The translations under genes and the position numbers were made by a program. A stretch of DNA of 41,078 nt. Source: an uncultured Thiotrichales bacterium. GTDB taxonomy: Bacteria; Pseudomonadota; Gammaproteobacteria; CAZUMV01. The stretch covers positions 1 to 41,078 of the forward strand of contig CAZUMV010000003.1 in NCBI GenBank assembly GCA_964621435.1, in the 5' to 3' direction. How positions within the stretch are numbered: the first letter of the stretch is position 1; every line of letters begins with the position of its first letter. Positions 8,450-41,030 of the stretch are shown here, in pieces. The notes beneath the pieces were generated by a model. It did not search any database, was not told the DNA's origin, and saw only the letters and a program-made list of their open reading frames with translations.

Positions 8450-9545
8450 ATGGAACTGAATCCACTGTTTAATAAAATTGAAGACCTTAAGGTGCGCACC
8501 GACGCGCTTAGGGGGTATCTTTGACTATGAGGCCAAAGCAGAGGCGCTAGAAGAGGTTAGCCGCGAACTAGAAGCTCCGGATATTTGGAACGATCCTGAA
8601 AAAGCGCAAGCGATGGGGAAAAAGCGCGCGACGCTGGAAGCCATCGTTAAAACCATTACCAATCTTGATGGCGGTCTGGCAGACGCCAAAGACTTACTCG
8701 ACATGGCCCAGGAAGAAGCTGATCAGGAAACTGCAGATTCTGTTGCCGCTGATCTTGCTGAGTTTGAGCAACATGTAGCCGGGCTCGAGTTTCGTCGAAT
8801 GTTTTCCGGTGAAATGGATCAGGCGAGTGCGTTTTTGGATATCCAGTCTGGTTCTGGTGGTACTGAAGCGCAAGATTGGGCGGAAATGATTTTAAGAATG
8901 TATTTGCGCTGGGCCGAACAGCAAGGTTTTAAAGCTGAATTAATGGAAGCATCCGCAGGCGACGTCGCTGGAATTAAAAGTGCAACCATAAAGGTTGAGG
9001 GCGAGTATGCGTTCGGTTGGCTGCGGACAGAAACCGGCGTGCATCGTCTGGTTAGAAAGTCTCCGTTTGATTCGGGTAATCGGCGCCATACTTCCTTTGC
9101 AGCCGTTTTTGTCTCTCCAGAGGTTGATGACGATATCGAAATTGAAATCGATCCATCGGATCTACGTATTGACGTCTATCGAGCTTCGGGTGCTGGCGGG
9201 CAGCATGTTAATAAAACCGAATCTGCAGTGCGTATTACGCACCTGCCTACCAACACGGTAACGCAGTGTCAGAATGGTCGCTCGCAACATAAAAATAAAG
9301 ACATGGCGATGAAGCAATTAAAGGCCAAGCTGTACGAGCTTGAGATGAAAAAACGCATGGAAGATCAACAAGCAGTAGAAGAAGGTAAGTCTGATATTGG
9401 CTGGGGTAGTCAAATACGCTCTTATGTATTGGATCAATCTCGAATAAAGGATTTACGTACTGGCGTGGAAACAGGAAATACACAGGCTGTGCTCGATGGT
9501 GGTCTTAATCAATTTATTGAGGCGAGCCTCAAATCAGGGCTTTAA
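8450..9545 (+). CDS. prfB: Peptide chain release factor 2, expressed through programmed +1 frameshift: join(8450..8521,8523..9545)
   Basis: Frame 0 reads '[24 protein letters not shown]' and stops at TGA 8522-8524. The +1 frame continues '[12 protein letters not shown]...' and contains '[21 protein letters not shown]' (GGQ motif) and an SPF motif ('[16 protein letters not shown]'). Confidence 0.95.
8510..8525 (+). promoter_or_regulatory. prfB autoregulatory +1 frameshift site: internal SD-like AGGGGG, then TAT CTT TGA C
   Basis: The sequence AGGGGGTATCTTTGAC has the same layout as the classical E. coli prfB recoding site. It has an SD-like element, a 3-nt spacer, a slippery CTT, and an in-frame TGA followed by C. 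Confidence 0.9.
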
Positions 9546-25684: not shown

Positions 25685-26716
25685 ATGAACATCATGTTGA
25701 AAACAATGTTAGCCCTAATATTACTGTCGATATCCGGCGTCGTATCTGCGGCTTGGTATGAAGAAAAGGCCGAGATCATGGGTACGGATATTCGAGTGTA
25801 TTTGTGGCACGACGACGAATCCAAAGGGAAACGGGCAGTCACTGATGTTATGTCCGAATTTCGCCGTATCGATGCTTTGATGAGTACCTATTTGGAGTCG
25901 TCAGAATTGTCGTTAATAAATCGTCGCGCGGCGCACCAACCGGTTGCGGTGTCGGATGAGTTGTTACAGCTGATTATGCAAGCATTAGAGCTGTCAGAGC
26001 GCACTGACGGTGCTTTTGATATTACGTATGCTAGCGTTGGGTATCTTTATGACTATCGAAATGCTGTCCGACCTGATGACGCGACCATCGGCCAACGCCT
26101 TAAAGCGGTAAATTTTCGTCATGTGCGGGTAGATCAGAACAAAAGAACCATTGAATTTAATCATCCGGATGTGCGTATTGATCTCGGTGGTATCGCAAAA
26201 GGTTACGCAGTCGATCGGGCGATCACGAAGTTAACAGGGCTTGCGGTTGAACACGCAATTGTTACTGCCGGTGGTGATACGCGGGTATTGGGTCAGCATC
26301 GTGATCGACCATGGGTGGTCGGTATTCAAGACCCGCGTCTGAATGACAAAGTAGTAGCCTTGATTCCGTTGGTTGATGAGTCCATTTCAACTTCCGGAGA
26401 TTACGAAAGATACTTTGATGATAATGGGATCAGGTACCACCATATCATCGATCCGCAAACCGGCGATTCAGCGAGAGCGGTGCGGAGTGTGTCGATTTTA
26501 GGTGCCACGAGCACTTTGGCTGATGCTTTATCGACAAGTTTGTTTGTGCTTGGACTGGATGATGGTATTGAGGTAATCAATAAGATTGAAGGTTACGAAG
26601 CTATCGTGGTCGACCAGCAGGGAAAGTTGCACTACTCAACCGGGTTACAGCAGCCGGAGAAACCGGAGGGTACGGCAAAACATCAGGTGGGTGGCGTATT
26701 GTCACCGGCCAAATGA
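25685..26716 (+). CDS. apbE: FAD:protein FMN transferase (ApbE family), periplasmic
   Basis: The product has a signal peptide, 'FDITYASVGYLY', 'DLGGIAKGYAVDRA' and 'HIIDPQTG'. Confidence 0.9.
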   Translation: MNIMLKTMLALILLSISGVVSAAWYEEKAEIMGTDIRVYLWHDDESKGKRAVTDVMSEFRRIDALMSTYLESSELSLINRRAAHQPVAVSDELLQLIMQALELSERTDGAFDITYASVGYLYDYRNAVRPDDATIGQRLKAVNFRHVRVDQNKRTIEFNHPDVRIDLGGIAKGYAVDRAITKLTGLAVEHAIVTAGGDTRVLGQHRDRPWVVGIQDPRLNDKVVALIPLVDESISTSGDYERYFDDNGIRYHHIIDPQTGDSARAVRSVSILGATSTLADALSTSLFVLGLDDGIEVINKIEGYEAIVVDQQGKLHYSTGLQQPEKPEGTAKHQVGGVLSPAK

Positions 26717-26728
26717 TTAGAGGTGGTA

Positions 26729-29524
26729 ATGAAAATGCATAAATTTAAATTCACCGTATTGGTATTGTTGCAGATCGGATTGATTGCGTGTACTGCAGGT
26801 GGCAATGACAATGATGATCAAGCGGGCATAGATGGTAGCGGAGTTGAATCCAGCGACCTGGGCAGCGCTAGTTTGGTTAATGCAAATTTCTCGATCGTGT
26901 ATGTTGACCGATCGGTGGAGTCTGCTGGAAATCCTACTGACGGGATACGGTTTACGCCCGGCGGCGATCTGTATATCAAGAGCCTCGCTTCGCCGAGCGC
27001 TGAAGCTTTGAATATTACCGGAGTCTATACCGAAGGTCTTGGTGACGTCTCGGATCCGGAGGTTTCATATGATGGTAGAAGAGTGGTCTTTAGCATGCGC
27101 GGACCCGAAGACGAGACCTGGAATCTGTGGGAGTACGATAGTGACGCCGCAACTATCAGGCGCCTCATTAATAACCCTGATTTAACTGATGAGGGTGATG
27201 ATGTTGATCCTGCGTATTTGCCGGATGGTCGGATTATTTTTAGTTCAAACCGTCAGGAAAAAAGCCAGCGTTTGTTAGCCGCCGAAAACAAAGAGCCGTA
27301 CGCGTATTTAGACGAGTACGAGCGCGAGCGCACGATTGCATTGCATGTTCTCAGCAGGGATGGTGACGAGGTTTCGCAAATCTCGTTTAACCAAAGCCAT
27401 GATCGAAATCCAACAGTATTGAGCAGCGGCGCGATAATGTACGCCCGTTGGGACCACTTGGGTAACCGCAACCATTTTCCACTGTTTTTCACCAATCCTG
27501 ATGGTACCAACTTGTTTGTTCTTTATGGTGCCTTTAGTCCCGGCAACTCATTTTTGCATCCACGCGAAATGCCCGATGGAAAGGTAATATCGTCCTTAAT
27601 GCCACTTTCGGGAACCGGAGAAGGTGGTGCGCTGGTAATCATTGACGTCGAAAATTTTTCGGAAAATGATCAGCCGGCGCCAGGTCATACGGACACGGAA
27701 GTTGGGCAGCTCGGAGCAACCTTGCAAGAGATCCCCATCGATGACACGGCATCCGAGTTTGGTCGGTATACCACGCCGTTCCCGTTGTGGGATGGCACCA
27801 ACCGTGTTTTGGTTTCCTGGTCCGCCGCGCAAGCGCCTGATGAAGATAACCCCATGATGGGCGAAGATGGACCGCCACGCTATGGTATTCATATGCTCAA
27901 TCTCGATGATCAGTCATTACGCCCCATTGAGCTTGCTGCTCCCGGTAGAATTTTAACCGACCCGGTCGCGATGTTTCCACGCGCTTTGCCAAACATCATT
28001 GCAGACACTCCGGGCGACGCTGGTTTGGCCGCAGCGGGTCGAGGTATTCTCAACGTAAAAAGTGTGTATGACACCGATGATCTGGACATTATGGGTGATC
28101 GGGTTTTAATAGCGGGTGAATCGATTCCGGAAATTGACGGCGTGGCAGATGTGTTGTCGCTTAAGCAAGCGCGTGCCAACGATCGTCCGGCACGATTTGT
28201 ACGAGTCACTCGGGCGGTGCCAACACCGCCGGGCGTGACCACAGATAACGTCGGCTCCAATGACATGGAGATGCAGGAACTGCTGGGTTATTCCCGCGTC
28301 GCGCCCGATGGCTCGATTAGAATCGAGGTGCCGGCGGATACGCCACTCGCTTTGACCGTGGTTGATGCCAACGGGCGAGCGTTGCAAACGCACACAAATT
28401 GGCTGCAGGTTCGTCCTGGCGAGACCCGTACCTGTAATGGCTGTCATTCACCTCGACGTGGTAGCGCGATTAATGCCGCGCCGATTGCCGGTGACCATAG
28501 TAATACCGAGTTAGCAGGGGTTGTTGAGCCAGGTGAAAGCATGGCTGAAACTAACACCCGAATTAATCCGTCGGCGCTGAGTTTGACATCGGACATCGAG
28601 TTCGAAGACATATGGACTCTGGCTGCGAACGGGCCGGACCTGCCATTTAGTATTACCTACGCAGACCTATCTACTTTAGCGCCGACTGACGGCATTATTA
28701 ATTACCCGGAACACATCCAGCCGCTTTGGGAGCTGCATAATTGTGTTGGTTGTCATAATGGCGCAGCTGGATCGTTGGATTTAGGTAGCACGACCGCAGC
28801 GACCGGGCGTTTAACATCCTACGAACAACTCACCCTTGGTGAACCTGTTCTGGACGCGCAGGGATTGCCAATAACGTTTACTGTAAATGGCGAAGTGTTG
28901 GTGCAGCGTGAACCCGCTTTGGTTGAAATGGGATCAGCAATTAACAGCTCGCGCACCAGTCATTTAATCGAAAAGCTTTATCAAACAGAGTTGCTGGCGG
29001 ACCGAAGTTTAGCGCCGACGACGGTTAACCATAATGGTATTTTGAATGCGTCAGAACTTCGTTTGTTACAGGAGTGGATAGATCTCGGCGCACAATATTT
29101 CAATAGCCCTTATGAGAGTAATGCGGGCGATGATGGTTTTTATGCGCTTGGCGAGATTCGAAGCTTCCCGGCAGGTCTGAGCGAAGATGTGTTTGCAGAG
29201 AGTGTACAACCGGTGTTGTTGCAGCGTTGCGGTAGTTGTCATGGTGCTGTTGGTGATGATGGTGAGGCGAATGGTGGTTTTTCCGCCAAGCGATTCGTGC
29301 TGACAGGCGCGTTAGAAGGGGATTTCAATATAACCAGAGCAATGGTTAGCAATATTTGTGACGCAGAGAGTTCCCTGTTGTTGACAATGCCCAGTATCAT
29401 TCAGCAGGGAAATATTGCCCATCCGGCGATCAATGGACAACCGGTATTACAGAGTACAGATAATGACTTTCAAACGATTTTTACGTGGATTACAGCGGCA
29501 GCAGCTAGTAACAACTGTCCCTAA
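26729..29524 (+). CDS. Large lipoprotein: TolB/PD40-like beta-propeller N-terminal half plus a C-terminal half with three CXXCH motifs in PSCyt1-like domains
   Basis: The lipobox is 'GLIAC'. PD40-like blades include 'PEVSYDGRRVVFSMRG' and 'PAYLPDGRIIFSSNR'. The motifs are CNGCH (28433-28447), CVGCH (28742-28756) and CGSCH (29228-29242). The last two lie in 'P.L...C..CH ... L...E...L..WI' contexts. Confidence 0.7.
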   Translation: MKMHKFKFTVLVLLQIGLIACTAGGNDNDDQAGIDGSGVESSDLGSASLVNANFSIVYVDRSVESAGNPTDGIRFTPGGDLYIKSLASPSAEALNITGVYTEGLGDVSDPEVSYDGRRVVFSMRGPEDETWNLWEYDSDAATIRRLINNPDLTDEGDDVDPAYLPDGRIIFSSNRQEKSQRLLAAENKEPYAYLDEYERERTIALHVLSRDGDEVSQISFNQSHDRNPTVLSSGAIMYARWDHLGNRNHFPLFFTNPDGTNLFVLYGAFSPGNSFLHPREMPDGKVISSLMPLSGTGEGGALVIIDVENFSENDQPAPGHTDTEVGQLGATLQEIPIDDTASEFGRYTTPFPLWDGTNRVLVSWSAAQAPDEDNPMMGEDGPPRYGIHMLNLDDQSLRPIELAAPGRILTDPVAMFPRALPNIIADTPGDAGLAAAGRGILNVKSVYDTDDLDIMGDRVLIAGESIPEIDGVADVLSLKQARANDRPARFVRVTRAVPTPPGVTTDNVGSNDMEMQELLGYSRVAPDGSIRIEVPADTPLALTVVDANGRALQTHTNWLQVRPGETRTCNGCHSPRRGSAINAAPIAGDHSNTELAGVVEPGESMAETNTRINPSALSLTSDIEFEDIWTLAANGPDLPFSITYADLSTLAPTDGIINYPEHIQPLWELHNCVGCHNGAAGSLDLGSTTAATGRLTSYEQLTLGEPVLDAQGLPITFTVNGEVLVQREPALVEMGSAINSSRTSHLIEKLYQTELLADRSLAPTTVNHNGILNASELRLLQEWIDLGAQYFNSPYESNAGDDGFYALGEIRSFPAGLSEDVFAESVQPVLLQRCGSCHGAVGDDGEANGGFSAKRFVLTGALEGDFNITRAMVSNICDAESSLLLTMPSIIQQGNIAHPAINGQPVLQSTDNDFQTIFTWITAAAASNNCP

Positions 29525-30032
29525 ATTTTTATATGTGATTTGTATCGCTTTTGTGTTGCTCGCTTGTGACCCGGTAGATCCGGTAGGTGAAAATACCGCA
29601 TTCGCCGGACGCAGCTTATGTTTTGAGAACTATCAGTTTTGCATAGATCCGATTTTTCACGCCAATTTACTTGGCAGTGCCGGGAGCGTTAACTGTTCTT
29701 CTAGCGGGTGCCATGATACCAATGCCGGGTCCGGTGGTGGTTTTAAAGTATTTTTATCGCCGGCATTGAATTCAGAAGAAATGCTGTCCAATTTTTATAC
29801 AGCTCAAGCGTTCGCTAACTTTAGCACACCATCTGATTCAAAGCTTTTGCTCGAACCACTTACTGGAACGTTTTCTGTAACAGGTAGTCACGCTGGCGGA
29901 GATATATTATTCAACCGGTCAGATCCTTGTTATTTAGCCATAATCGACTGGATTAATGAGCAGGTAAATGACGAAAACAGCAGTAGTTGTGGGCTATGCA
30001 CGCCGCCAACTCTGAGTGCCTGCGGCTATTAG
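29463..30032 (+). CDS. Small lipoprotein paralogous to the C-terminal domain of the preceding protein (CX4CH variant)
   Basis: The lipobox is 'VLLAC'. 'CSSSGCHDTNAGSGGGFKVF...SKLLLEP...IIDWI' aligns with 'CGSCHGAVGDDGEANGGFSAKRFVL...SSLLLTMP...IFTWI' in the upstream ORF. The start is uncertain, with 29463 ATG preferred. Confidence 0.5.
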   Translation: MTFKRFLRGLQRQQLVTTVPKFLYVICIAFVLLACDPVDPVGENTAFAGRSLCFENYQFCIDPIFHANLLGSAGSVNCSSSGCHDTNAGSGGGFKVFLSPALNSEEMLSNFYTAQAFANFSTPSDSKLLLEPLTGTFSVTGSHAGGDILFNRSDPCYLAIIDWINEQVNDENSSSCGLCTPPTLSACGY

Positions 30033-30083: not shown

Positions 30084-30836
30084 GTGATAAAAACTTGCCC
30101 GCGAGCATCAATTCTACTAATTGCGTTGTTATTCTGTGCTGACGGCTCTATTGCCGCGGACACACAGCTATTGCGCGTGCAAGTTACCGAACCGTATCTG
30201 GAGATGTACACGGGTCCAGGCCGGGGTTTTCCGGTGTTCCATGCAGTTGAGCGAGGCGCCTGGGTAGAAATTGTAAAGCGGCGAACAGATTGGTTTGAAG
30301 TTCGGACAAGACGCGGCAAAACTGGTTGGGTAAAACGTAGTGCACTTGAAAAAACCCGGTCAATGACTGGTTCACAATTGGTTTTTGATGGCGCCGGAAA
30401 AGGAGATTTATTCGGCCGGCCTCTGGAAATAGGGTTGGTCGGCGGCGCTTTGGAAAGTGATCCTTTGTTAGGTGCGCGGCTTGGGTATTATCTGACCGAA
30501 AGCATTTCGGTAGAACTCGTACTGAATCATGTGCCGGGAAAGTTTTCGCGCTCAATAATTTATGGCGGAAATATACAAGTACATCCGTGGCCGCAATGGC
30601 GCATATCGCCATATTTTTCATTGGGGTCAGGGGTTATTAGAAATGAGCCGAAAGCAACTTTGGTTGGTGTGAACAATGTTGATGCGACAGTTTGGAGTGC
30701 GGCCGCCGGTGCGCGTTATCGAATCAATGAAAAATTCATGTTTCGGGTTGAGGTTCGGGATCACCAGGCATTGGTAAATGACGCTAATACGCAGAACCTG
30801 CTGGAGATAACGGCCGGGTTTTCGTTTTTTTATTAG
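30084..30836 (+). CDS. Outer-membrane beta-barrel protein with an N-terminal bacterial SH3 domain
   Basis: A signal peptide is followed by the SH3b-like 'LEMYTGPGRGFPVFHAVERGAWVEIVKRRTDWFEVRTRRGKTGWVKRSAL'. Alternating amphipathic strands follow, ending in 'AGFSFFY' with an aromatic C-terminus. Confidence 0.62.
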   Translation: MIKTCPRASILLIALLFCADGSIAADTQLLRVQVTEPYLEMYTGPGRGFPVFHAVERGAWVEIVKRRTDWFEVRTRRGKTGWVKRSALEKTRSMTGSQLVFDGAGKGDLFGRPLEIGLVGGALESDPLLGARLGYYLTESISVELVLNHVPGKFSRSIIYGGNIQVHPWPQWRISPYFSLGSGVIRNEPKATLVGVNNVDATVWSAAAGARYRINEKFMFRVEVRDHQALVNDANTQNLLEITAGFSFFY

Positions 30837-30837
30837 G

Positions 30838-31494
30838 ATGATGGGAATGATTAATAACACAATAAAAATAATTTTGATCGTAGCTGGCTTTTCGCTAAGT
30901 AGCGTGCCCGCCGCTGAAGAAGTCGAAGACTCGCTTGCCGATGTTGAGCAGGTGGTAGTGCCGGAGGTTTACCGGCGCACGGTGAAAGCGCCAAAAATAG
31001 ATGCGCGAGACTTTGAGTTGACTTTATATGGTGGCGTGCTTGGTATGGAAAATTTTAGCTCCAGTCCGGTTGGTGGCGTGCGGCTGGCATATCATATTAC
31101 CGAAGATTTTTTCCTCGAGGCCGGGGTCGCGGCTTCGACAATCAACGATGAAGCGTTTCGACAATTCGGCTTGAATTTGTTTCCTGCAGAAGATGAAAGT
31201 CTGATTTATTATGATCTGGCGGTTGGCTATAACGTGCTCCCGGGTGAATTCTTTTGGGGCGAGAACTATGCAATTCCAACTCATCTGTACGTTATTGCAG
31301 GGGTAGGGAGTATCACTATTGTTGATGAAGATTTTTTTAGTGTTAATTTCGGCGCCGGGGTGCGCATGTTAGTAAGTGAGCGTTTCACCTTGCACCTTGA
31401 TGTACGTGACCGGATTTTTGAAAATACCCTGTTGGGTAGTGAGGACCTTACCAATAATCTTGAATTAACTGTTGGTGTTGGATTGCAATTTTAG
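30838..31494 (+). CDS. Small outer-membrane beta-barrel protein
   Basis: The product has a signal peptide and alternating hydrophobic strands, and it ends 'LTVGVGLQF'. It starts 1 nt after the upstream stop. Confidence 0.58.
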   Translation: MMGMINNTIKIILIVAGFSLSSVPAAEEVEDSLADVEQVVVPEVYRRTVKAPKIDARDFELTLYGGVLGMENFSSSPVGGVRLAYHITEDFFLEAGVAASTINDEAFRQFGLNLFPAEDESLIYYDLAVGYNVLPGEFFWGENYAIPTHLYVIAGVGSITIVDEDFFSVNFGAGVRMLVSERFTLHLDVRDRIFENTLLGSEDLTNNLELTVGVGLQF

Positions 31495-31505: not shown

Positions 31506-32018
31506 ATGAGTCTTATAAGCAAACGCGTTGTAGTACTAATGTGCTTGTTGGCACTGCCGGCCTTGGCGGTTGGTAAATCAAGCATCGTAGGAAAAACTGC
31601 TCCGAATTTCAGGGCGCTTGGCCTGGATGGGTTTGGCTACAGTCTCGATCAATTTCAAGGCAAGGTTATTATGTTGAACTTCTGGGCGAGTTGGTGTGGT
31701 CCGTGTCGACAAGAAATGCCACCGCTGGAGAATCTTTATCGACAGTACCGTGGTCTCGGGTTTGTGGTTGTGGGGGTTAATGTCGATGAAACTCTAGAGC
31801 CAGCAAAGAAAATGATCGCCAAGCTTGCCGTTAGTTATCCAAACCTTTACGACAGTGATAAAAACATTAGTCGGGGTTATAACGTCAGCACGATGCCAAT
31901 GACGGTGATTATTGATGGCACGGGTAAAGTTCGTTATGTGCATCATGGCTATAAGTCGGGTTATATGGAAAAGTATCAGCGCGAGGTGCGTCAACTTTTA
32001 GCGGAGCTGGGTCGATGA
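31506..32018 (+). CDS. Periplasmic TlpA/ResA-like thiol:disulfide oxidoreductase
   Basis: The product has a signal peptide, and the active site is 'FWASWCGPCRQEMP' (WCGPC at 31692-31706). Confidence 0.85.
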   Translation: MSLISKRVVVLMCLLALPALAVGKSSIVGKTAPNFRALGLDGFGYSLDQFQGKVIMLNFWASWCGPCRQEMPPLENLYRQYRGLGFVVVGVNVDETLEPAKKMIAKLAVSYPNLYDSDKNISRGYNVSTMPMTVIIDGTGKVRYVHHGYKSGYMEKYQREVRQLLAELGR

Positions 32019-32251
32019 AAAATTTAGCAGTATTACTCTCAATATTACTTATGACTGGTTGTAGCAGCATCGAAAAGGTGCTTTCTCCAGAGCCCTGGGT
32101 TCCGCCCTATGAGCGCGGTGAGCTAGCTCAGCCAATCATGCAGTTTAGCCGCAACCCGTTGTCGGATAAATTTCGTCAGCATGTTTTAGATACCCGCGAA
32201 GGGGCTCGAGGTGCAACCGTGACTAAAGGTGGTGGGTGTGGTTGTAATTAG
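32015..32251 (+). CDS. DUF4266-like small lipoprotein ending in GGGCGCN
   Basis: The lipobox is 'LMTGCSS' and the product is 78 aa. 'PWVPPYERGELA' and the C-terminal 'KGGGCGCN' match my recollection of the DUF4266 family. The start overlaps the TlpA stop. Confidence 0.72.
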   Translation: MKNLAVLLSILLMTGCSSIEKVLSPEPWVPPYERGELAQPIMQFSRNPLSDKFRQHVLDTREGARGATVTKGGGCGCN

Positions 32252-33332
32252 TCGTTTAATGGTTGTTGTGATGCTGGTAATAGTCGGGCAGGCCGGAGCT
32301 GAAACTCTGCCAGAAGACCGGATCCAGGTTATGTACCACAGTTATGATGGTGGCGGGGTTACCGTTGACGGTCCGGCTGTTTTAGTGCGCAAAGAGCTTA
32401 AAGATCAATATTCCGTGAACGTGGGCTATTACCGGGACTCTATTAGTGGTGCCTCACCGGATGTAATCGCTACCGCGAGCCCGTACACTGAAAATCGCGA
32501 TGAGTTATCAATTGGTCTCGACGCGCTCCTGGGTAGCAGCTTGGTGTCGCTTACCTACATTAAAAGCGAAGAAAACGATTACGATGGCAATACCGTGCAG
32601 TTCGGAATTTCACAAAGCTTCTTTTCCCAGATGAGCACCTTGAGTCTAGGCTACTCGGTCGGCAATGACACGGTTGAACGAGTGGATAATGATTTTTCCG
32701 AAGATCTTAAGCGCTATCAATTTAGTGTCGGTTTAACGCAAGTTTTAACCAGCACCATGTTAATGAATCTAAGTGTCGAGGGTATTACTGACGAAGGATT
32801 TTTGAGCAATCCGTATCGCTCTGTTCGTATATTTGGTTCTTTCGCCGGGCCTGAGGTTTACCCCGATACTAGAACGAGCGCGGCGTATGCGATTCGGGTT
32901 AAGAAACTATTGTGGGGCGATGATGTCGTAACACTGGGTTACCGTTTCTATGACGACAGTTGGAGTATCACCGCGCATACCGGTGAAGTTGGCTTCACTC
33001 GAACCATGTCGGATCGATTGGTGCTCGATCTGGATTACCGTTTTTACGATCAATCCAGCGCGTCATTCTTCAGTAGCGATTTTCAAGGTTTGTTTCGCTT
33101 CATGGCCAGCGATAAAGAGCTGAGTTCATATCAGAGTCATACCGTGGGACTTGGTCTCACTTATGAGCTTTTTAACAATTATTTTTATGGTTTTGACCGT
33201 GGTGAGCTGGGCTTAACATATGATTTCAGGATCAATGAATATGATAACTACTTCGCACCGAACGCTAGTACTTCGGAGCTGTACGAGTTTGACGCAAATG
33301 TTTTCAATATTAACCTCTCGTTGTTTTACTAA
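32229..33332 (+). CDS. DUF3570-like predicted outer-membrane beta-barrel protein carrying an ApbE-type flavinylation motif
   Basis: A signal peptide is followed by 'IQVMYHSYDGGGVTVDGPAVLV', then beta-rich sequence ending 'INLSLFY'. The motif D-S-I-S-G-A-S lies at 32436-32456. The start is uncertain, either GTG 32229 or ATG 32259. Confidence 0.68.
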   Translation: MVGVVVISRLMVVVMLVIVGQAGAETLPEDRIQVMYHSYDGGGVTVDGPAVLVRKELKDQYSVNVGYYRDSISGASPDVIATASPYTENRDELSIGLDALLGSSLVSLTYIKSEENDYDGNTVQFGISQSFFSQMSTLSLGYSVGNDTVERVDNDFSEDLKRYQFSVGLTQVLTSTMLMNLSVEGITDEGFLSNPYRSVRIFGSFAGPEVYPDTRTSAAYAIRVKKLLWGDDVVTLGYRFYDDSWSITAHTGEVGFTRTMSDRLVLDLDYRFYDQSSASFFSSDFQGLFRFMASDKELSSYQSHTVGLGLTYELFNNYFYGFDRGELGLTYDFRINEYDNYFAPNASTSELYEFDANVFNINLSLFY

Positions 33333-33361: not shown

Positions 33362-34105
33362 ATGGTTGGCGTTAAAAAACCACTGATAATTTTATTCACA
33401 CTTTGTTTTTCGGCCGTTGTGTTTGCCGCTGAAGGCGAATCAACGACGACCGACATCGGTGATGAGGATAGTTCTTACACTATATTCGAAGGTGATACCG
33501 AGAGCTTGCGAGATGGCGAGTTAACAGCAGAGGGCGAGGCTGCGCTGCGCGAAGCACAAGCTAATGATGCCAATCAAACTACCTCAACCTTGCGTCCCGC
33601 AGAAAGTGATATCGGGCAGCCGAGTCAGGTTGATCTTGATAATGCCGACGAGCTATTAGCGGCGCAAGGTCTGGATGCAAATATTCAGTCATTGAAAGAA
33701 GAAGTTCTCGTGTTGAATCGTGAGCTCTTTTCGTTAGAAGAGGAATTGCTGTTCCCCTCGAACACCCAGTTTGCGGTATACGTGTCCATTGATGTGGGTG
33801 AATTTTTTGATATGGAATCGGTACGGGTTATTCTGGACAATAAGCCGGTTGCAAGCTATCTCTACACCAAGCGTGAGTCAGATGCGTTAATGCGGGGTGG
33901 AGTGCATCGTATTTACATGGGCAACCTGACGGCCGGATCGCACGAGTTGGTAGCGTACTATACCGGTCGCGGACCGCGCGGCCGCGATTTCAAGCGTGCC
34001 ACCAAACGTACCGTTAATAAAGAAATTGGCCCTAAATATGTCGAGCTCAAAATTTCTGATCGCGCTGGAAAAAAGCAATCCGAATTTATAGTTAAAGAGT
34101 GGTAG
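33362..34105 (+). CDS. Secreted protein with acidic N-terminal region, coiled coil and beta-rich C-terminal domain; unknown function
   Basis: GGAG lies 9 nt upstream of the start, and the signal peptide ends 'VVFA-AEG'. A heptad-like stretch 'IQSLKEEVLVLNRELFSLEEELL' is present. Confidence 0.55.
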   Translation: MVGVKKPLIILFTLCFSAVVFAAEGESTTTDIGDEDSSYTIFEGDTESLRDGELTAEGEAALREAQANDANQTTSTLRPAESDIGQPSQVDLDNADELLAAQGLDANIQSLKEEVLVLNRELFSLEEELLFPSNTQFAVYVSIDVGEFFDMESVRVILDNKPVASYLYTKRESDALMRGGVHRIYMGNLTAGSHELVAYYTGRGPRGRDFKRATKRTVNKEIGPKYVELKISDRAGKKQSEFIVKEW

Positions 34106-34129: not shown

Positions 34130-36031
34130 ATGAGAACTTTCCAATCCATCGCTTTGCTCGTGTGCTTATTAAGCGTGAGCGCCTGGCAAGTTGTCTCGGC
34201 GGAGGCGAGCGAAGGAGATATTATTCGAGATCTCCCGTATGGAGAAGTGTTGTTCGATTTTTACCAGCAAAATTATTTTTTGTCGTTGGTGAATTTGATC
34301 AAAGCGCAAAATGACAATAGCGTGCCGCAGCACGCCGGTGAGGCCGAACTACTGCGCGGAGGTTTATACTTATCCTATGGTATGCGCACTCGCGCCGAAA
34401 ACATTTTCGAACAAGTGCTGGCAACCGAACAAAGTCCGGAAGTGAAGAATCGTGCTTATTATTATCTGGCGCGAATAGCCTACCAACGGGGGTTACTCGA
34501 TGATGCCTTGCTAAATTTGGCGAAAATTCGTGGCGATCTGCCGCAAACACTACGTGGTCGAGATGCACTCATGGCAGCGATTATAGAGATCAAACAAGAA
34601 AAGTATCGTGATGCTTTTACTCGTTTAGATGGCTGGCAAGGTGAAGCGGATATCCGTCACTATGTTGCTTATAACAAGGGCATCGCTGCATTGCGCCTGG
34701 GGCAAACTGACACCGGTACTGATTTGCTGGACTTGTTGGGGCGCGAAAACTTTCGCTCCGAGGAAACCGAACTACTGGCGCTTAAGGATCGGGCAAACCT
34801 TGCGATCGGGTTACATTTTTTGCGCCAGGATAGTGCGTCAGAGGCAAAACCATTTCTGGATCGGGTGCGACTGTCAGGTCCCTATTCTAGCAAGGCCTTG
34901 TTAGCGGCGGGTTGGTCGGATGCCCGTAATGAGTTTTACCAGCCCGCGTTAATTCCCTGGAACGAGTTAGCGGGGCGCAATTTGCTTGATCCGGCGGTGC
35001 AAGAATCTTTATTCGCGATACCGTATGCGCTTGCCAATGCTGGCGGTCTAAAGCAAGCTGCAGAAGCTTATCAAGATGCGCTCGATGTTTTCAAACAAGA
35101 GAAGGCAAACTTGATAGCGGCTATCGAGGGGCTAGAAGATAGTAACTATCTCGAGGTGTTATTGAGTAGCGCGCAAGATATTGAACTGGGTTGGTTCAGA
35201 GAATTGCAGGTCGTGGAAGACGCACCACACCCGTGGTATCTCGATGAGCTACTAGCTTCACACCGCGTCCAAGAATCCTTGAAGAATTATCGAGATCTGT
35301 TGTTTCTGGATCTTAACCTTAAAACGTGGGAAGAATCGATGGATTCTTTCACTAATATGGTCGAATTGCGCCGCGAAAAGCACGCCGCCGTGGCGCCGCG
35401 TGCACAGGCAGTGCTGCAAGCGGGTGAGCAAAATAATCTCCAGAATAAATTTGCCAAGCTCAGCGAAGTATATTTAAGTGCCGACGAAAAACAAAAACTG
35501 CGCTTGCTGGCAACACCAGCAGAGCTCGAGAAGCTACAGCGCATGGATAAATTGCAGACCATGATCGCGGCACATCCTAATGCTAAAGCGCACGACTATC
35601 TGCTCCGCCGGGTAGATTTTTTAAAAGGGATTTTGTTTTGGGAAATTTACAATACGCTCGATAATCGCAGCCAACGTTCTGGTAAAGAGCTGGCCGCTTT
35701 GGAGGCCGAGTTCGAGCAAAGTCGCGACTTTATAGACAGTATCAATAATTTGTTGCGCGAATTGCCAAATGGTTTTTCCGGTTTTGCTGAAAAAATACAA
35801 TCCAAGCGCGCGGGTATTGGTGCTACCAGAGTCAAGGTTGATCAGGTTTTGGCGGAACAAAAAGGACAGCTAACACAGCGTATCGTGGCGGAGTTGCAAG
35901 GGCATAAAAAGCGCATAGAAGAATTACAAATTCAGGCGGCTTTTGCGCTGGCGCAGATTTATGATAAAGATAGCGAAAAAGAACCGGATGAACAGGAAGA
36001 GCAACCACGCAACCGCGGGGTCGCGAGATGA
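34130..36031 (+). CDS. Periplasmic TPR-like / coiled-coil protein (633 aa); unknown function
   Basis: The signal peptide ends 'VVSA-EAS'. TPR-like helical repeats include 'AELLRGGLYLSYGMRTRAENIFEQVL' and 'YYLARIAYQRGLLDDAL'. The C-terminal region is a long coiled coil. Confidence 0.6.
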   Translation: MRTFQSIALLVCLLSVSAWQVVSAEASEGDIIRDLPYGEVLFDFYQQNYFLSLVNLIKAQNDNSVPQHAGEAELLRGGLYLSYGMRTRAENIFEQVLATEQSPEVKNRAYYYLARIAYQRGLLDDALLNLAKIRGDLPQTLRGRDALMAAIIEIKQEKYRDAFTRLDGWQGEADIRHYVAYNKGIAALRLGQTDTGTDLLDLLGRENFRSEETELLALKDRANLAIGLHFLRQDSASEAKPFLDRVRLSGPYSSKALLAAGWSDARNEFYQPALIPWNELAGRNLLDPAVQESLFAIPYALANAGGLKQAAEAYQDALDVFKQEKANLIAAIEGLEDSNYLEVLLSSAQDIELGWFRELQVVEDAPHPWYLDELLASHRVQESLKNYRDLLFLDLNLKTWEESMDSFTNMVELRREKHAAVAPRAQAVLQAGEQNNLQNKFAKLSEVYLSADEKQKLRLLATPAELEKLQRMDKLQTMIAAHPNAKAHDYLLRRVDFLKGILFWEIYNTLDNRSQRSGKELAALEAEFEQSRDFIDSINNLLRELPNGFSGFAEKIQSKRAGIGATRVKVDQVLAEQKGQLTQRIVAELQGHKKRIEELQIQAAFALAQIYDKDSEKEPDEQEEQPRNRGVAR

Positions 36032-38808
36032 CTATTAAGTTAAATCTCAAACAAATCTTTGTGCCGGTGTTACCGTTGGTTTTAATGGGGTGTGCGTTCG
36101 AAAAAGGTGACCGGGCGGCAACTTTAAGCGACTTGTATGACCGACCGATTCCGATAATCGATGAGCAGCCAATGGCGAAAAGCCTGGAGTTGGCGGAGCA
36201 GTCTTATCGTCAGATGCTTGATCTGGATTCGAGTTCGGAGATGCGGCCCGAAGCATTGCGGCGTTTGGCTGATATTGTCTCCGACGTTGATAACATCATA
36301 AATGACAACGACGAAGTTGATCAAGAAGCACTCACAGCGGCGACCGAGCTGTATCAAGAGGCGCTGGATGATTATCCAAAGTACCGTTCTCGTGATCATA
36401 TTCTCTATCAACTTGCACGAATCCAGGACCAGAATGGCAAGCCCGACGAGTCGTATTTGCTGTTGGATGAATTAATAAGTAAACATCCCGACTCGGAATT
36501 TTTTCAAGAAGCGCAGTTTCGTCGTGCCGAATATTTGTTTATTGAAAAAGAATATGAGCAAGCGCAAACCGCCTATGCAGCGGTAATCGCCACAGACGCG
36601 GATGAGAAATTTATTGAGCCAGCCATATACAAAAAGGGTTGGTCATTGTTTAAGCAAAATGAATACGAGCTGGCAGTAAACGAGTTTACTACCCTGTTGG
36701 ATGAACGTGTTGTTGAAGGCGCACGGGATCTTGAAAAACTGTCGCGGGCTGAACGGGAACGTATTGATGATTCTCTGCGCGGAATTAGTTTGAGTTTTGT
36801 CTATCAGGAAGGTGTTGATTCGGCGTTGGCGTATTTCGACAAACGTGGTGCCCGTAAATACGAAGATCTTGTTTATACCCATCTGGCTGAATATTACATC
36901 GACAAAGAGCGTTTTACCGATGGTGCGGATACCTTTGCTGGATTCTTGTACCGCAATCCTTGGCATGAGAATGCTGCCGATTTTCAAGCGCGACGCATTG
37001 CGACTTTGAAAAAAGGCGATTTTCCCAGCCTTGAGTTAGAGGCGCGGAAAGAATTTGTTGCCTTGTTTGATGTCGACTCAGAGTATTGGGAATACTATCC
37101 GGTCGCGGACAATCAGCATATTGTCGACGAAGTAAAGATCCACGTGGTCGATTTGGCCAACCATTATCAGTCCTTGGCGCAGGTCGATAATAAAACTGAA
37201 AATTATCAGGAAGCCGAAGTTTGGTATAAGCGCTTTCTAACGTCATTTCCGAAAGATGAAAAGGCGCCGGAGATCAATTATTTATTGGCCGAGTCCTACT
37301 ATCAAAACGGGCGCTTCCGTGATTCTGCGAAAGCCTATGAAGCAGTGGCTTATGACTATGATGCCCATCCAAAATCTGCCGAAGCCGGTTATGCAGCGTT
37401 ACTTGCCTATCAGCAGGTCATTGATGCTAACGCGGGTGACGATGCGGCTGCCAGCGGTAAAGAATTCACCGCAAGTGCAGTGCAGTTCGAAAAAGCATTT
37501 CCCAAGCACCCAAAGGCCAATCAGGTTTTGGTGAGCGTCGCACAAAACCAGTTTGATCAACGTAATTATGATGAAGCGATGGCGCTGGCTGAACGGTTAA
37601 TCGAAAAACAACCACCAACCGGCGAAGCCGAAAGGGGTGTCGCCTGGACCATTCTAGCCAACTCCAATTTTGAGCAAGATGCATTTGTGGCGGCGGAAAA
37701 GGCCTATGTCGAAGCGTTAGCCTTGGTACCGGCTGGTGATGTATTGCGCAACGACTTAACCGAAAACCTCTCAATTGCGGTTTATCGACAAGCAGAGCAA
37801 GCCAAAGAAAAAGGTGATACGGCAGGTGCTATTGCAGCATTCTTGCGGGTCAATGAAGTTGCCCCGGGTACCGAGGTAGCGGTAACCGCGCAATATGATG
37901 CCGCTGCATTATATATCGCTGATGCCAAATGGCAGCCGGCAATTCCGATTTTAGAGCGGTTCCGAGCGTCCTATCCGAGCCATGAGCTGCAAAAGGAAGT
38001 CGATAAAAATTTGGCCACTGCCTACTTGAAAACGAATCAACCAACCAAGGCGGCGGCAGAGTTCCAGCGTCTGGCGGTGTCAGGCGAGTCCGCGGAAATC
38101 CGTCGAGAAGCGATTTTGCAGGCATCTGATTTATATGCTGATGGAGGTGATCAAAATCGTTCCATCGCGATGCTGGAACAATTCGTTCAGGATTTTCCGT
38201 CGCCAGCGGAGCCGGCCATGGAAGCGGCGGCAAAGTTAGCGACACATTATGAACGGTTGTTTGGTGTGGAAGGTGCCTATACCTGGCACGAAAAAGTTGT
38301 GGCGCTTAATCCTGGAAGTGGTGGTAATGATCGAACGCGCTTCTTGGCGGCGAAATCCAGCCTTTCGCTCGTAAAACCATCGGTTGAGGCTTATCAACGG
38401 GTACAGCTTGTGACACCATTGAAAGAGACCTTGCGCGAGAAAAAGCAATTAATGGAAGCGGCATTAGATAAATATGCAGAGTTATCGGCCTACGGAATTG
38501 CCGAGATTTCAACCGAGGCCGCCTATCAAACCGGTTTTATCTATGATGATTTCGCCGAAGCCATTATGGATTCGGAGCGCCCGGCCGAGCTTGATGCGGA
38601 CGCCTTGGAAGAATATGAAATCTTGCTTGAAGAGCAGGCGGATCCATTTCTTGAAAAAGCCATCGATGCGCATGAGGTCAATGTTGGTCGCATTAATCAG
38701 GATGTCTACGATGAATGGGTTAAGCGCAGCTTGGTTGATCTGCAAGCGCTGCTGCCGGCCCGTTACAATAAACAGGAGCGCATCAATGCTGTTACGCGTA
38801 TTCATTAG
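36028..38808 (+). CDS. Large TPR-repeat lipoprotein (926 aa), YbgF/BamD-like repeats
   Basis: The lipobox is 'VLMGC'. There are many TPR units, for example 'ILYQLARIQDQNGKPDESYLLLDELISKHPDSEF' and 'INYLLAESYYQNGRFRDSAKAYEAV'. The start overlaps the upstream stop. Confidence 0.7.
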   Translation: MTIKLNLKQIFVPVLPLVLMGCAFEKGDRAATLSDLYDRPIPIIDEQPMAKSLELAEQSYRQMLDLDSSSEMRPEALRRLADIVSDVDNIINDNDEVDQEALTAATELYQEALDDYPKYRSRDHILYQLARIQDQNGKPDESYLLLDELISKHPDSEFFQEAQFRRAEYLFIEKEYEQAQTAYAAVIATDADEKFIEPAIYKKGWSLFKQNEYELAVNEFTTLLDERVVEGARDLEKLSRAERERIDDSLRGISLSFVYQEGVDSALAYFDKRGARKYEDLVYTHLAEYYIDKERFTDGADTFAGFLYRNPWHENAADFQARRIATLKKGDFPSLELEARKEFVALFDVDSEYWEYYPVADNQHIVDEVKIHVVDLANHYQSLAQVDNKTENYQEAEVWYKRFLTSFPKDEKAPEINYLLAESYYQNGRFRDSAKAYEAVAYDYDAHPKSAEAGYAALLAYQQVIDANAGDDAAASGKEFTASAVQFEKAFPKHPKANQVLVSVAQNQFDQRNYDEAMALAERLIEKQPPTGEAERGVAWTILANSNFEQDAFVAAEKAYVEALALVPAGDVLRNDLTENLSIAVYRQAEQAKEKGDTAGAIAAFLRVNEVAPGTEVAVTAQYDAAALYIADAKWQPAIPILERFRASYPSHELQKEVDKNLATAYLKTNQPTKAAAEFQRLAVSGESAEIRREAILQASDLYADGGDQNRSIAMLEQFVQDFPSPAEPAMEAAAKLATHYERLFGVEGAYTWHEKVVALNPGSGGNDRTRFLAAKSSLSLVKPSVEAYQRVQLVTPLKETLREKKQLMEAALDKYAELSAYGIAEISTEAAYQTGFIYDDFAEAIMDSERPAELDADALEEYEILLEEQADPFLEKAIDAHEVNVGRINQDVYDEWVKRSLVDLQALLPARYNKQERINAVTRIH

Positions 38809-39830: not shown

Positions 39831-40472
39831 ATGTTTGAAACGATAGCTGGTTTTTTTAAAGATGGTGGTACTTTTATGATACCGATCGCCGTCGTATTGG
39901 CACTCGGGTTGGCAATAGCGGGTGAGCGTTGGGTTTATTTAACACGTGCCCGGGTGAGTAATTTGATGCGTTGGAAGAAGCTGCAGCCATTACTTGAAAA
40001 AGGTGAGCTCAGGTCAGCACTAAATACTTCGAACGGATCAAATACGGCCATTGACAAGATTTTGACCTACGGCCTTATGCGCGCGTCTACTTCCAAGAAT
40101 AGTGCCGAAGTCGAAATGGCCATGGAAGAAGGCCTGATGGAAGTCATGCCGCGACTCGAAAAGCGCACGCATTATCTTGCAACATTGGCCAACATTGCCA
40201 CCTTGCTGGGTTTGCTAGGGACCATTATGGGACTTATTAGAGCGTTTACTGCGGTAGGCGAGGCAAATCCTGCGGATAAAGCGGATTTATTGTCAGCAAG
40301 TATCTCGGTGGCCATGAATACCACAGCGTTTGGTTTGATGGCTGGTATTCCTTTGCTGTTATTGCACGCTTATCTAACGACCAAGACCACGACCGTAATA
40401 GATAGTCTTGAAATGGCGACCGTAAGAATCATGAATTTGATTACTGGTCACTCTGTCAAAAAAGCGCAGTAA
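39831..40472 (+). CDS. MotA/TolQ/ExbB-family proton channel protein
   Basis: The product has three TM segments, and 'LATLANIATLLGLLGTIMGLIRAF' and 'AMNTTAFGLMAGIPLLLLHAYL' match the ExbB/TolQ core. Confidence 0.9.
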   Translation: MFETIAGFFKDGGTFMIPIAVVLALGLAIAGERWVYLTRARVSNLMRWKKLQPLLEKGELRSALNTSNGSNTAIDKILTYGLMRASTSKNSAEVEMAMEEGLMEVMPRLEKRTHYLATLANIATLLGLLGTIMGLIRAFTAVGEANPADKADLLSASISVAMNTTAFGLMAGIPLLLLHAYLTTKTTTVIDSLEMATVRIMNLITGHSVKKAQ

Positions 40473-40478
40473 GTTACT

Positions 40479-41030
40479 ATGCTTCGTAAACGCAGGCACT
40501 CCCGCTATAAGCAGGATGCAGAACTCAATATAACTGCCTTCATGAACTTAATGGTGGTGCTGGTGCCGTTTCTGTTGCTGATGGCAGTGTTTACGCGCTT
40601 GACAGTTATTGAGTTGGCGCTGCCGGGCCCACCGTCCGAGTTGGAAGAACTGCCTGAAGAGCCACCAATTGAACTTGAGCTAGTGCTGCGCGAAAATCGT
40701 ATAGATATTCAAGATCGTGGTTCGGCATTAATCGGCGAATATGCAGCAATCGGTGGTAAGGATGACTTCAAATCTGTGACTGCCAAGTTGCGCCAGATAA
40801 AAGCCCAGTTTCCGGAAGTTAAAACCGCTTCGATACTCGCCGAAGACGATGTGCCATATGACCGCATCGTGCAAGTCATGGAGATCATGCGAAATTACAA
40901 TACGACAATTGATGGCGAATTAGTGCAACAGGAAATGTTTCCGGACATCGCGCTCGGAAAGGCTAACGTTGAAAACTTGCCTGAAGGTGCGCGTGACGTG
41001 GTGCAGCCATACGATCAGGTGAGTCAATGA
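40479..41030 (+). CDS. ExbD/TolR-family protein with Asn replacing the conserved TM Asp
   Basis: 'ELNITAFMNLMVVLVPFLLL' aligns with E. coli ExbD 'DINVTPFIDVMLVLLIIF'. The periplasmic domain contains 'ILAEDDVPYDRIVQVMEIM'. Confidence 0.85.
   Translation: MLRKRRHSRYKQDAELNITAFMNLMVVLVPFLLLMAVFTRLTVIELALPGPPSELEELPEEPPIELELVLRENRIDIQDRGSALIGEYAAIGGKDDFKSVTAKLRQIKAQFPEVKTASILAEDDVPYDRIVQVMEIMRNYNTTIDGELVQQEMFPDIALGKANVENLPEGARDVVQPYDQVSQ

Follow-up and report, generated by a model that had tools for sequence, protein, structure and literature searches.

Tandem candidate flavinylation sites in a predicted outer-membrane DUF3570 barrel from an uncultured Thiotrichales bacterium

Can an outer-membrane β-barrel serve as a carrier of covalently bound flavin, and which proteins would it then exchange electrons with? 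This question is raised by a 41,078-nucleotide stretch of DNA from an uncultured Thiotrichales bacterium (contig CAZUMV010000003.1; "the window" below means this whole stretch), in which a gene for a protein of the DUF3570 family shares a cluster with a gene for ApbE, the transferase that moves flavin mononucleotide (FMN) from flavin adenine dinucleotide (FAD) onto proteins. An original prediction, made from the sequence alone, held that the DUF3570 protein is an outer-membrane barrel that carries an ApbE-type motif. We consider it quite probable that the protein is a flavinylated outer-membrane barrel, modified at Ser76 and very probably at Ser84, and that it works in a thiol-to-flavin relay together with a TlpA-like oxidoreductase and a DUF4266 lipoprotein.

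Candidate flavinylation sites in the DUF3570 protein

By its sequence, the open reading frame (ORF) in question (Table 1) is a member of DUF3570, a known ApbE substrate family. Its match to PF12094 scores 136.6 bits (cutoff 25; E-value 1.4e-39), and a Pfam scan of the ORF gave DUF3570 only, with no FMN_bind domain (PF04205) around the motif. The ORF contains 'YYRDSISGASPDV', has LSLFY as its C-terminal end, and begins with a predicted Sec signal peptide that, read by eye, covers residues 1-24 (ending in GQAGA, with E as the next residue). The public database gene call for this protein is 364 amino acids long, compared to 367 for the ORF. Within it, the codons gac tct att agt ggt gcc tca encode D-S-I-S-G-A-S at residues 70-76. 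The motif that ApbE recognizes is D-x-x-[S/T]-G-A-[S/T], and a tag of seven residues is enough (PMC12052999); the first site (site 1) fits this strict consensus at all seven residues.

Only one match to the strict pattern D..[ST]GA[ST] is obtained when the whole window is translated in all six frames. When residues were shuffled within each of the 16 locus proteins, 0.0385 strict matches were expected among them, and for the DUF3570 protein alone the same kind of shuffling gave P = 0.0034. No flavinylation motif was found in the other locus proteins, even with relaxed patterns. The motif, its residue context, and the LSLFY end are therefore as the original prediction described them, and its claim that DUF3570 is the only motif-bearing protein of the locus holds as well. 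What the prediction overlooked is that the motif does not stand alone: although the site it named is real, a second candidate (site 2), DVIATAS, begins one residue past the end of the first. Site 2 fails the strict consensus, with Ala and Thr in place of [S/T] and Gly, but it keeps the Asp, the Ala, and the acceptor Ser. The tandem arrangement of the two sites appeared in 0 of 200,000 shuffles.

A check of the motif across DUF3570 homologues had been proposed along with the prediction, and the motif comes through it unrefuted. Among the 120 closest homologues, all of which carry PF12094, residues D70, A75, S76, D78, V79, and S84 are present in 120/120, and A83 in 119/120. Residue 74, Gly in the window, is Ser in 93/120 of these proteins and Gly in 23/120; because Ser is usual at this position, 94/120 lack a strict [ST]GA[ST]. 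We also examined a diverse set, the 126 of 150 representatives (50% identity clusters) that cover the motif region. At site 1, the Ala is kept in 117/126 of these, the acceptor is Ser in 116 and Thr in 5 (121/126), and the Gly position is occupied by S (63), G (32), N (13), A (7), or D (7). At site 2, the Asp is kept in 122/126, the Ala position holds Ala in 105 and Gly in 12, and the acceptor is Ser in 107 and Thr in 5 (112/126). Across the two sites, an acceptor Ser/Thr is thus kept in 89-96% of the diverse representatives. As far as these alignments tell, the conserved residues (Asp, Ala, and the acceptor Ser/Thr) are the fixed positions of the ApbE consensus. The family from which they are drawn is large, with 2,882 matches among the candidates of a word-index search and 3,666 clusters at 50% identity that reach E <= 1e-3 in an exhaustive search.

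Might the motif nevertheless be a chance match in an ordinary porin? It is short, and the number of matches expected in the 16 proteins, small as it is, lies above zero. Set against this are the key residues found in 120/120 homologues, the absence of the tandem from every shuffle, and a family that is a proven ApbE substrate. We regard a chance match as exceedingly improbable, and it was ruled out as a candidate on the shuffling and conservation data.

The flavinylation of DUF3570 proteins is not new: experimental evidence for it has been in print since 2021. Méheust et al. 2021 (eLife 10:e66878, PMC8238504) identified DUF2271 and DUF3570 as ApbE substrates, and described two conserved [S/T]GA[S/T] motifs in 228 ApbE-associated DUF3570 proteins. 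Co-expression in E. coli of the Chlorobium luteolum DUF3570 protein (ABB24424.1) with its cognate ApbE (ABB24423.1) gave a UV-fluorescent band; both Ser-to-Ala changes were required to abolish the fluorescence, and the protein itself was obtained in insoluble form (PMC8238504). The claim that the barrel is an ApbE substrate, which had come with a proposal for a test of this kind, is thus upheld by a homologue that its cognate ApbE has already been seen to flavinylate. The C. luteolum pair and the "DsbD system" clusters of that study are the nearest known counterparts, and have in common with the window the same PF12094 family, two motifs, and an ApbE gene in the cluster. By analogy, we infer that the two published motifs are equivalent to the tandem sites described here, although site 2 reads DVIATAS in the window rather than [S/T]GA[S/T]. 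Flavinylation of DVIATAS, and of the SSAS variants of site 1, is plausible, given that a seven-residue tag is enough and that Gly-to-Ala or Ala-to-Val changes in the ApbE motif only lower the flavinylation yield (PMC12052999). If the window protein is flavinylated, the peptide expected to bear FMN is YYRDSISGASPDVIATASPY.

Predicted fold and position of the sites

That the DUF3570 protein is an outer-membrane β-barrel, as the prediction had it, is supported by structural modeling. An AlphaFold2 (AF2) model made from a 65-sequence alignment is nearly all-β, with a mean predicted local distance difference test (pLDDT) score of 94.1 and a predicted template modeling (pTM) score of 0.85; its N-terminal helix (residues 5-19) corresponds to the signal peptide region. 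The top Foldseek matches in the PDB are outer-membrane barrels without exception, and the protein ends in a β-signal-like F-N-I-N-L-S-L-F-Y. The best global matches, at a template modeling (TM) score of 0.55, are PelB (9h80_M) and PgaA (4y25), which are 16-stranded and similar in size to the model. Both barrels serve in polysaccharide export, lack redox motifs, and share 7-11% sequence identity with the protein, and the match is one of generic barrel fold only. No relatives of solved structure were found at E <= 1 when the family profile was searched against PDB sequences, and NCBIfam holds no models for DUF3570, for DUF4266, or for the 205-aa and 247-aa proteins of the locus.

On which side of the membrane would the two sites lie? 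Strand count and membrane side were taken from the DSSP string of the AF2 model, by strand parity. We read the barrel as having 16 strands, with residues 198-208 taken as a mini-hairpin inside a loop. Bacterial outer-membrane barrels have an even number of strands, which rules out 17, and 18 strands were ruled out because a hairpin of 4-5-residue strands (198-201/204-208) would then have to span the membrane. A count of 16 is preferred because all of the long conserved connections then fall on one face, and because the best TM matches are 16-stranded. With this count, the connections after even-numbered strands are 2-8 residues long, and all four long connections (11, 23, 25, and 14 residues) follow odd-numbered strands. 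The mature N-terminus is about six residues ahead of strand 1. Barrels inserted by the β-barrel assembly machinery (BAM) keep their termini in the periplasm, so the face with the long loops would point away from it.

In the AF2 model, strand β3 stops just short of S76, and S84 comes after the short helix (77-82) that forms in loop L2. Both acceptor serines would accordingly be situated on the face opposite the termini, far from the periplasm. The distribution of invariant residues points to the same end of the barrel: 31/34 invariant columns are in the outer strand thirds or in the long-face loops, compared to 48.5% expected (permutation P < 1e-5). Because these residues cluster on the face that bears the motifs, the functional center of DUF3570 would be expected there too, and the invariant far-face residues probably form a flavin pocket in or over the lumen. 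There is no CxxCH in the DUF3570 barrel.

The assignment of the protein to the outer-membrane barrels and the placement of its sites on the far face, both drawn from the model, appear to be additions of the present analysis. The words "barrel" and "porin" are absent from the eLife text, and its single mention of "outer membrane" concerns siderophore receptors (PMC8238504). For DUF3570/PF12094, DUF4266, or a flavinylated outer-membrane barrel, our search of the later literature returned nothing beyond the eLife paper, a preprint mention, and an unrelated algal study. The Haft sorting-signal preprint notes in passing that DUF4266, DUF3570, and TlpA genes are neighbors, and a 2024 AlphaFold survey of flavinylated domains omits DUF3570. 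We found no prior discussion of far-face flavin sites on an outer-membrane barrel in the literature searched.

The surrounding gene cluster

The genes from ApbE to ExbD all run in one direction (Table 1). The prediction had called the ApbE gene adjacent to DUF3570; it does belong to the same co-directional cluster, but it is located six genes, or about 5.5 kb, upstream. By eye, ApbE has an N-terminal signal peptide; its NCBIfam ApbE match is below the equivalog cutoff, and the gene is found at the same position in the related loci L081-L084. The 933-aa lipoprotein that follows has three CxxCH haem c sites, at residues 571, 674, and 836, and at least two CxxCH are present in 57/63 of its homologues. 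The Cx4CH of the next, small protein is a rare motif, and recurs in 15/17 homologues. Its annotated start seems to be too far upstream, because homologues are 171-172 aa long, and the true start is probably downstream; gene calls for it exist in L081 and L083. The NCBIfam ResA/TlpA-like matches of the thiol:disulfide oxidoreductase are below their cutoffs, and WCxPC is found in 68/72 of its homologues.

The DUF4266 lipoprotein deserves closer attention as a potential partner of the barrel. It ends in a glycine-rich C-terminal tail, GGGCGCN, with a CxC, and a DUF4266 tail of the form GCGCN-stop is found in 75 of the 80 related loci described below. The end of its gene overlaps the start of DUF3570 by 23 nt, and the two genes are likely to be translationally coupled. 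The +2 residue of the lipoprotein is Ser, and Ser at +2 means retention in the outer membrane in Lol sorting of the E. coli type. A natural fusion, P0213 (419 aa), has a DUF4266-like segment without the CxC tail at the N-terminus of a distant DUF3570 (pairwise E 2e-8), and by eye P0190 and P0242 are fusions of the same kind; site 1 is degenerate in these fused forms. That the junction is at the N-terminus suggests docking of DUF4266 at the barrel's periplasmic end. Taken together, the 23-nt overlap, the Ser at +2, and the fusion P0213 suggest that the DUF4266 lipoprotein sits at the periplasmic mouth of the DUF3570 barrel and pairs with it stoichiometrically.

To see how far this gene content is shared, we compared 80 loci from representative genomes, all of them at most 47% identical and nearly all from Gammaproteobacteria. 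The order HZS-like / SH3-OMP / OMP / TlpA / DUF4266 / DUF3570 (OMP, outer-membrane protein) is kept in 60-76 of the 80 loci. Two architectures can be distinguished. The first resembles the window in having ApbE as well as TPR/ExbBD genes. The second (about 37-41 of the 80 loci, e.g. L008, L009, L014, and L062) has three divergent genes upstream of the HZS-like gene, which encode a PSD2/DUF1585-like protein with CxxCH, an 829-aa lipoprotein with LamG and CxxCH, and a 364-aa protein without an assigned family. No ApbE lies within 10 kb at these loci, and their site 1 is almost always SSAS. About one in four to one in three of the related loci have the block of 247-aa, TPR, and ExbBD genes beside DUF3570. 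Beyond the end of the window, the operon goes on in the relatives L081 and L083 (79% and 47% identity) with a second ExbD and a further gene, which in L031 has a TonB_C domain. Gene calls for the TPR proteins exist in L081 and L083, and the true start of the third TPR protein is probably near 38800.

Judged by gene content, the conserved module is larger than the published one, and comprises the tri-haem HZS-like lipoprotein, the two small OMPs, TlpA, and DUF4266, with TPR and ExbB/ExbD genes added in this lineage. Several components of the window's cluster (the tri-haem HZS-like lipoprotein, the Cx4CH protein, the two small OMPs, TPR, and ExbB/ExbD) are not in the text of the published work (PMC8238504). 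In that work, DsbD was present in 285 of the ApbE/DUF3570/thioredoxin-like/DUF4266 clusters and missing from 316 (PMC8238504). The window shares with these clusters the DUF4266 CxC and the thioredoxin-like neighbor, and matches the 316 that have no co-localized DsbD.

Table 1. Features of the DUF3570 locus in the window, with the number of the 80 related loci that contain each gene
Feature	Position	Strand	Basis	Related loci (of 80)
ApbE FAD:protein FMN transferase, first cluster gene	25685..26716	+	Pfam ApbE, E 2.5e-83, profile 1-265 of 266	20 (within 10 kb)
933-aa tri-haem lipoprotein (HZS-like)	26723..29524	+	Pfam HZS_alpha, E 2.5e-20 (middle domain); PD40 propeller repeat	60
Small Cx4CH protein (CSSSGCH)	29415..30032	+	No Pfam or NCBIfam match	
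SH3 and small outer-membrane β-barrel protein (SH3-OMP)	30084..30836	+	Pfam SH3_4, SH3_3, OMP_b-brl	69
Small outer-membrane β-barrel protein (small OMP)	30838..31494	+	Pfam OMP_b-brl; NCBIfam TIGR04565, 132.7 bits (cutoff 60)	72
Secreted TlpA/ResA-like thiol:disulfide oxidoreductase, WCGPC	31506..32018	+	Pfam Redoxin, AhpC-TSA	70
DUF4266 lipoprotein, 78 aa	32015..32251	+	Pfam DUF4266, E 6.5e-21; lipobox LMTG/C	76
DUF3570 protein	32229..33332	+	GTG start, 367 aa; Pfam PF12094	
Flavinylation site 1 (candidate)	32436..32456	+	D70-S-I-S-G-A-S76; S76 predicted FMN acceptor	
Flavinylation site 2 (candidate)	32460..32480	+	D78-V-I-A-T-A-S84, relaxed; S84 predicted second FMN acceptor	
Secreted 247-aa protein, directly downstream of DUF3570	33362..34105	+	No significant Pfam match	30
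Three TPR-repeat proteins	34130-36031, 36028-38808, third ending 39421	+	Pfam TPR families	23-27
ExbB	39831-40472	+	Pfam MotA_ExbB	19
ExbD	40479-41030	+	Pfam ExbD; window ends after it	

A possible thiol-to-flavin relay and its alternatives

How might such a protein be made and used? We propose that the DUF3570 protein would be exported by Sec, and that the operon's periplasmic ApbE would then transfer FMN from FAD onto Ser76 through a phosphoester bond, with Ser84 very probably modified too. This attachment would take place in the periplasm on the unfolded chain, ahead of folding in the outer membrane, an order that is compatible with what is known because the published protein was modified even though it was insoluble, and because ApbE accepts short tags. 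BAM would then fold the modified chain into the outer membrane, and the flavin loop would come to lie at the barrel's far end, on it or inside it. Electrons might be supplied by a DsbD/CcdA encoded elsewhere and pass through the TlpA-like protein and the DUF4266 CxC to the flavins, and a further partner may be the co-conserved tri-haem lipoprotein; the order and direction of this flow, like the final acceptor or donor, are put forward as a proposal. For the published clusters, a hybrid thioredoxin/flavin relay fed by DsbD was suggested, and its authors call the function uncertain (PMC8238504).

If modified in this way, DUF3570 would stand apart from the better known ApbE substrates. The FMN_bind proteins (NqrC, RnfG, NosR, PceC, PplA, and the urocanate and fumarate reductases) share with it the transferase, the motif, the phosphoester on Ser/Thr, and the extracytosolic location. 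They are, however, small soluble or inner-membrane-tethered α/β domains, whereas DUF3570 is predicted to be a membrane β-barrel of unrelated fold with two sites eight residues apart in one loop. The likeness to MtrA/MtrB/MtrC of Shewanella, PioAB, and MtoAB is one of functional analogy, as only the concept of an outer-membrane barrel with a redox cofactor and a periplasmic or lipoprotein cytochrome is shared. In MtrAB, the haems are on a separate protein that is threaded through a 26-strand barrel. DUF3570, in contrast, has about 16 strands by our count, a cofactor predicted to be covalently bound to the barrel itself, no CxxCH, and no sequence relationship to MtrAB.

Several observations weigh against a flavinylated outer-membrane barrel that acts in a thiol-to-flavin relay. 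Covalent FMN is demonstrated for the C. luteolum homologue only, and site 2 is off the strict consensus at two positions (A-T for [S/T]-G). Most homologues have Ser rather than Gly at site 1, and only 20/80 loci have ApbE within 10 kb; for both reasons, flavinylation across the whole family is an assumption. The thioredoxin-like partner is of the TlpA/Redoxin type here and is given as PF13899 in the published clusters (PMC8238504). Among the scanned ORFs of the window there is no DsbD (PF02683) or other inner-membrane electron donor, and the strand count and membrane side come from a DSSP string only. Some of these points could be taken to mean that the tandem D-x-x-S-x-A-S / D-V-x-x-x-A-S is kept for structure or ligand binding, and that the protein is not flavinylated in this lineage, or only partly so, as would be the case if Ser76 alone were modified and DVIATAS were a relic. 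The departure of site 2 from the consensus would then be expected, as would the 94/120 closest homologues without a strict motif, the scarcity of ApbE near related loci, and the degenerate site 1 of the fused DUF4266-DUF3570 forms. The variants may also be unequal substrates: ApbE was found within 10 kb in 4/5 full-flank loci with Gly at site 1 and in 4/33 of those with Ser, counts that are uncorrected for phylogeny. Yet site 1 of the window is fully canonical and shares its operon with an ApbE gene, the invariant residues (acceptor Ser, Ala, and Asp) are those expected for recognition by ApbE, fluorescence of the C. luteolum protein was lost only with both sites mutated (PMC8238504), and Gly-to-Ala merely lowers flavinylation (PMC12052999). 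We therefore consider an unmodified or partly modified barrel, including the version with Ser76 alone, to be improbable.

Location is a separate matter. The barrel could be flavinylated and still face the periplasm, if the L2 flavin loop and the conserved loops fold down into the lumen; no electrons would then cross the outer membrane. The flavins might instead take part in redox chemistry on a small substrate or metal entering the barrel, or in redox sensing, with TlpA/DUF4266 and the ExbB/ExbD/TonB-like proteins. Such a role would suit the ApbE, TlpA-like, DUF4266, and haem lipoprotein partners, which are periplasmic or periplasm-facing by their signal peptides and lipoboxes, and the pLDDT of 93-98 at residues 71-90 and 271-300, which fits loops packed in the lumen rather than floppy ones. 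It would also suit the 25 DUF3570 clusters that were linked to the VIT1 iron transporter (PMC8238504), and the downstream ExbB/ExbD/TonB_C genes, which suggest an uptake-type process. Against it, strand parity puts the sites at the barrel end most remote from the periplasm, the protein has no plug domain and no TonB box, and only some of the related loci, about a quarter to a third, have the ExbBD/TPR genes. On balance, a periplasm-facing role seems to us rather unlikely, if the most credible of the alternatives.

A more ambitious proposal is that DUF3570 is a flavin conduit that spans the outer membrane and does without haem, an analogue in this sense of the MtrAB porin-cytochrome. Here, the 16-strand barrel would hold two FMNs eight residues apart on L2, placed in or above the lumen together with the remaining conserved loops of the far face. 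The GGGCGCN tail of DUF4266, threaded in from the periplasm as a plug is into its barrel, would pass TlpA-derived electrons to the flavins, which would reduce or oxidize a substrate outside the cell or at its surface. The tri-haem HZS-like lipoprotein would be an accessory specific to the lineage, as would the products of the ExbBD/TonB genes. We think this conduit unlikely, somewhat more so than the periplasm-facing role, and offer it tentatively in all of its parts; that DUF3570 is an endpoint of electron export or import across the outer membrane, which the original prediction had found plausible, is speculation.

Relative to what has been published, then, the new elements of a flavinylated barrel in a thiol-to-flavin relay are the predicted far-face location of the two flavins in the outer membrane and the larger conserved module. 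If it is true that the flavins link the cell surface with thiol chemistry in the periplasm, they would constitute a haem-free electron route across the outer membrane, and a widespread one, because the family numbers thousands of the clusters counted above. Such a route would bear on metal cycling and on the physiology of symbionts, the latter because many of the 80 loci are from Thiodiazotropha and other marine Gammaproteobacteria. Possible experimental entry points are the four loci, among these 80, that come from named records other than metagenome-assembled genomes (Gilvimarinus chinensis DSM 19667, Alcanivorax sp. DSM 26293, Porticoccus sp. W117, and Aliikangiella maris GXAS 306).

Two further features of the window lie outside of the cluster. 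At 8450-9545 (+), prfB, the gene for release factor 2, shows a programmed +1 frameshift: the short frame stops at 'AGGGGGTATCTTTGAC' (8510-8525), and the PCRF/RF-1 ORF resumes in the +1 frame. This is known biology, unrelated to DUF3570. A 963-aa ORF at 5409-8300 (+) has weak dockerin, cellulase-like, and proline-rich-repeat matches, and possibly encodes a secreted glycoside hydrolase.

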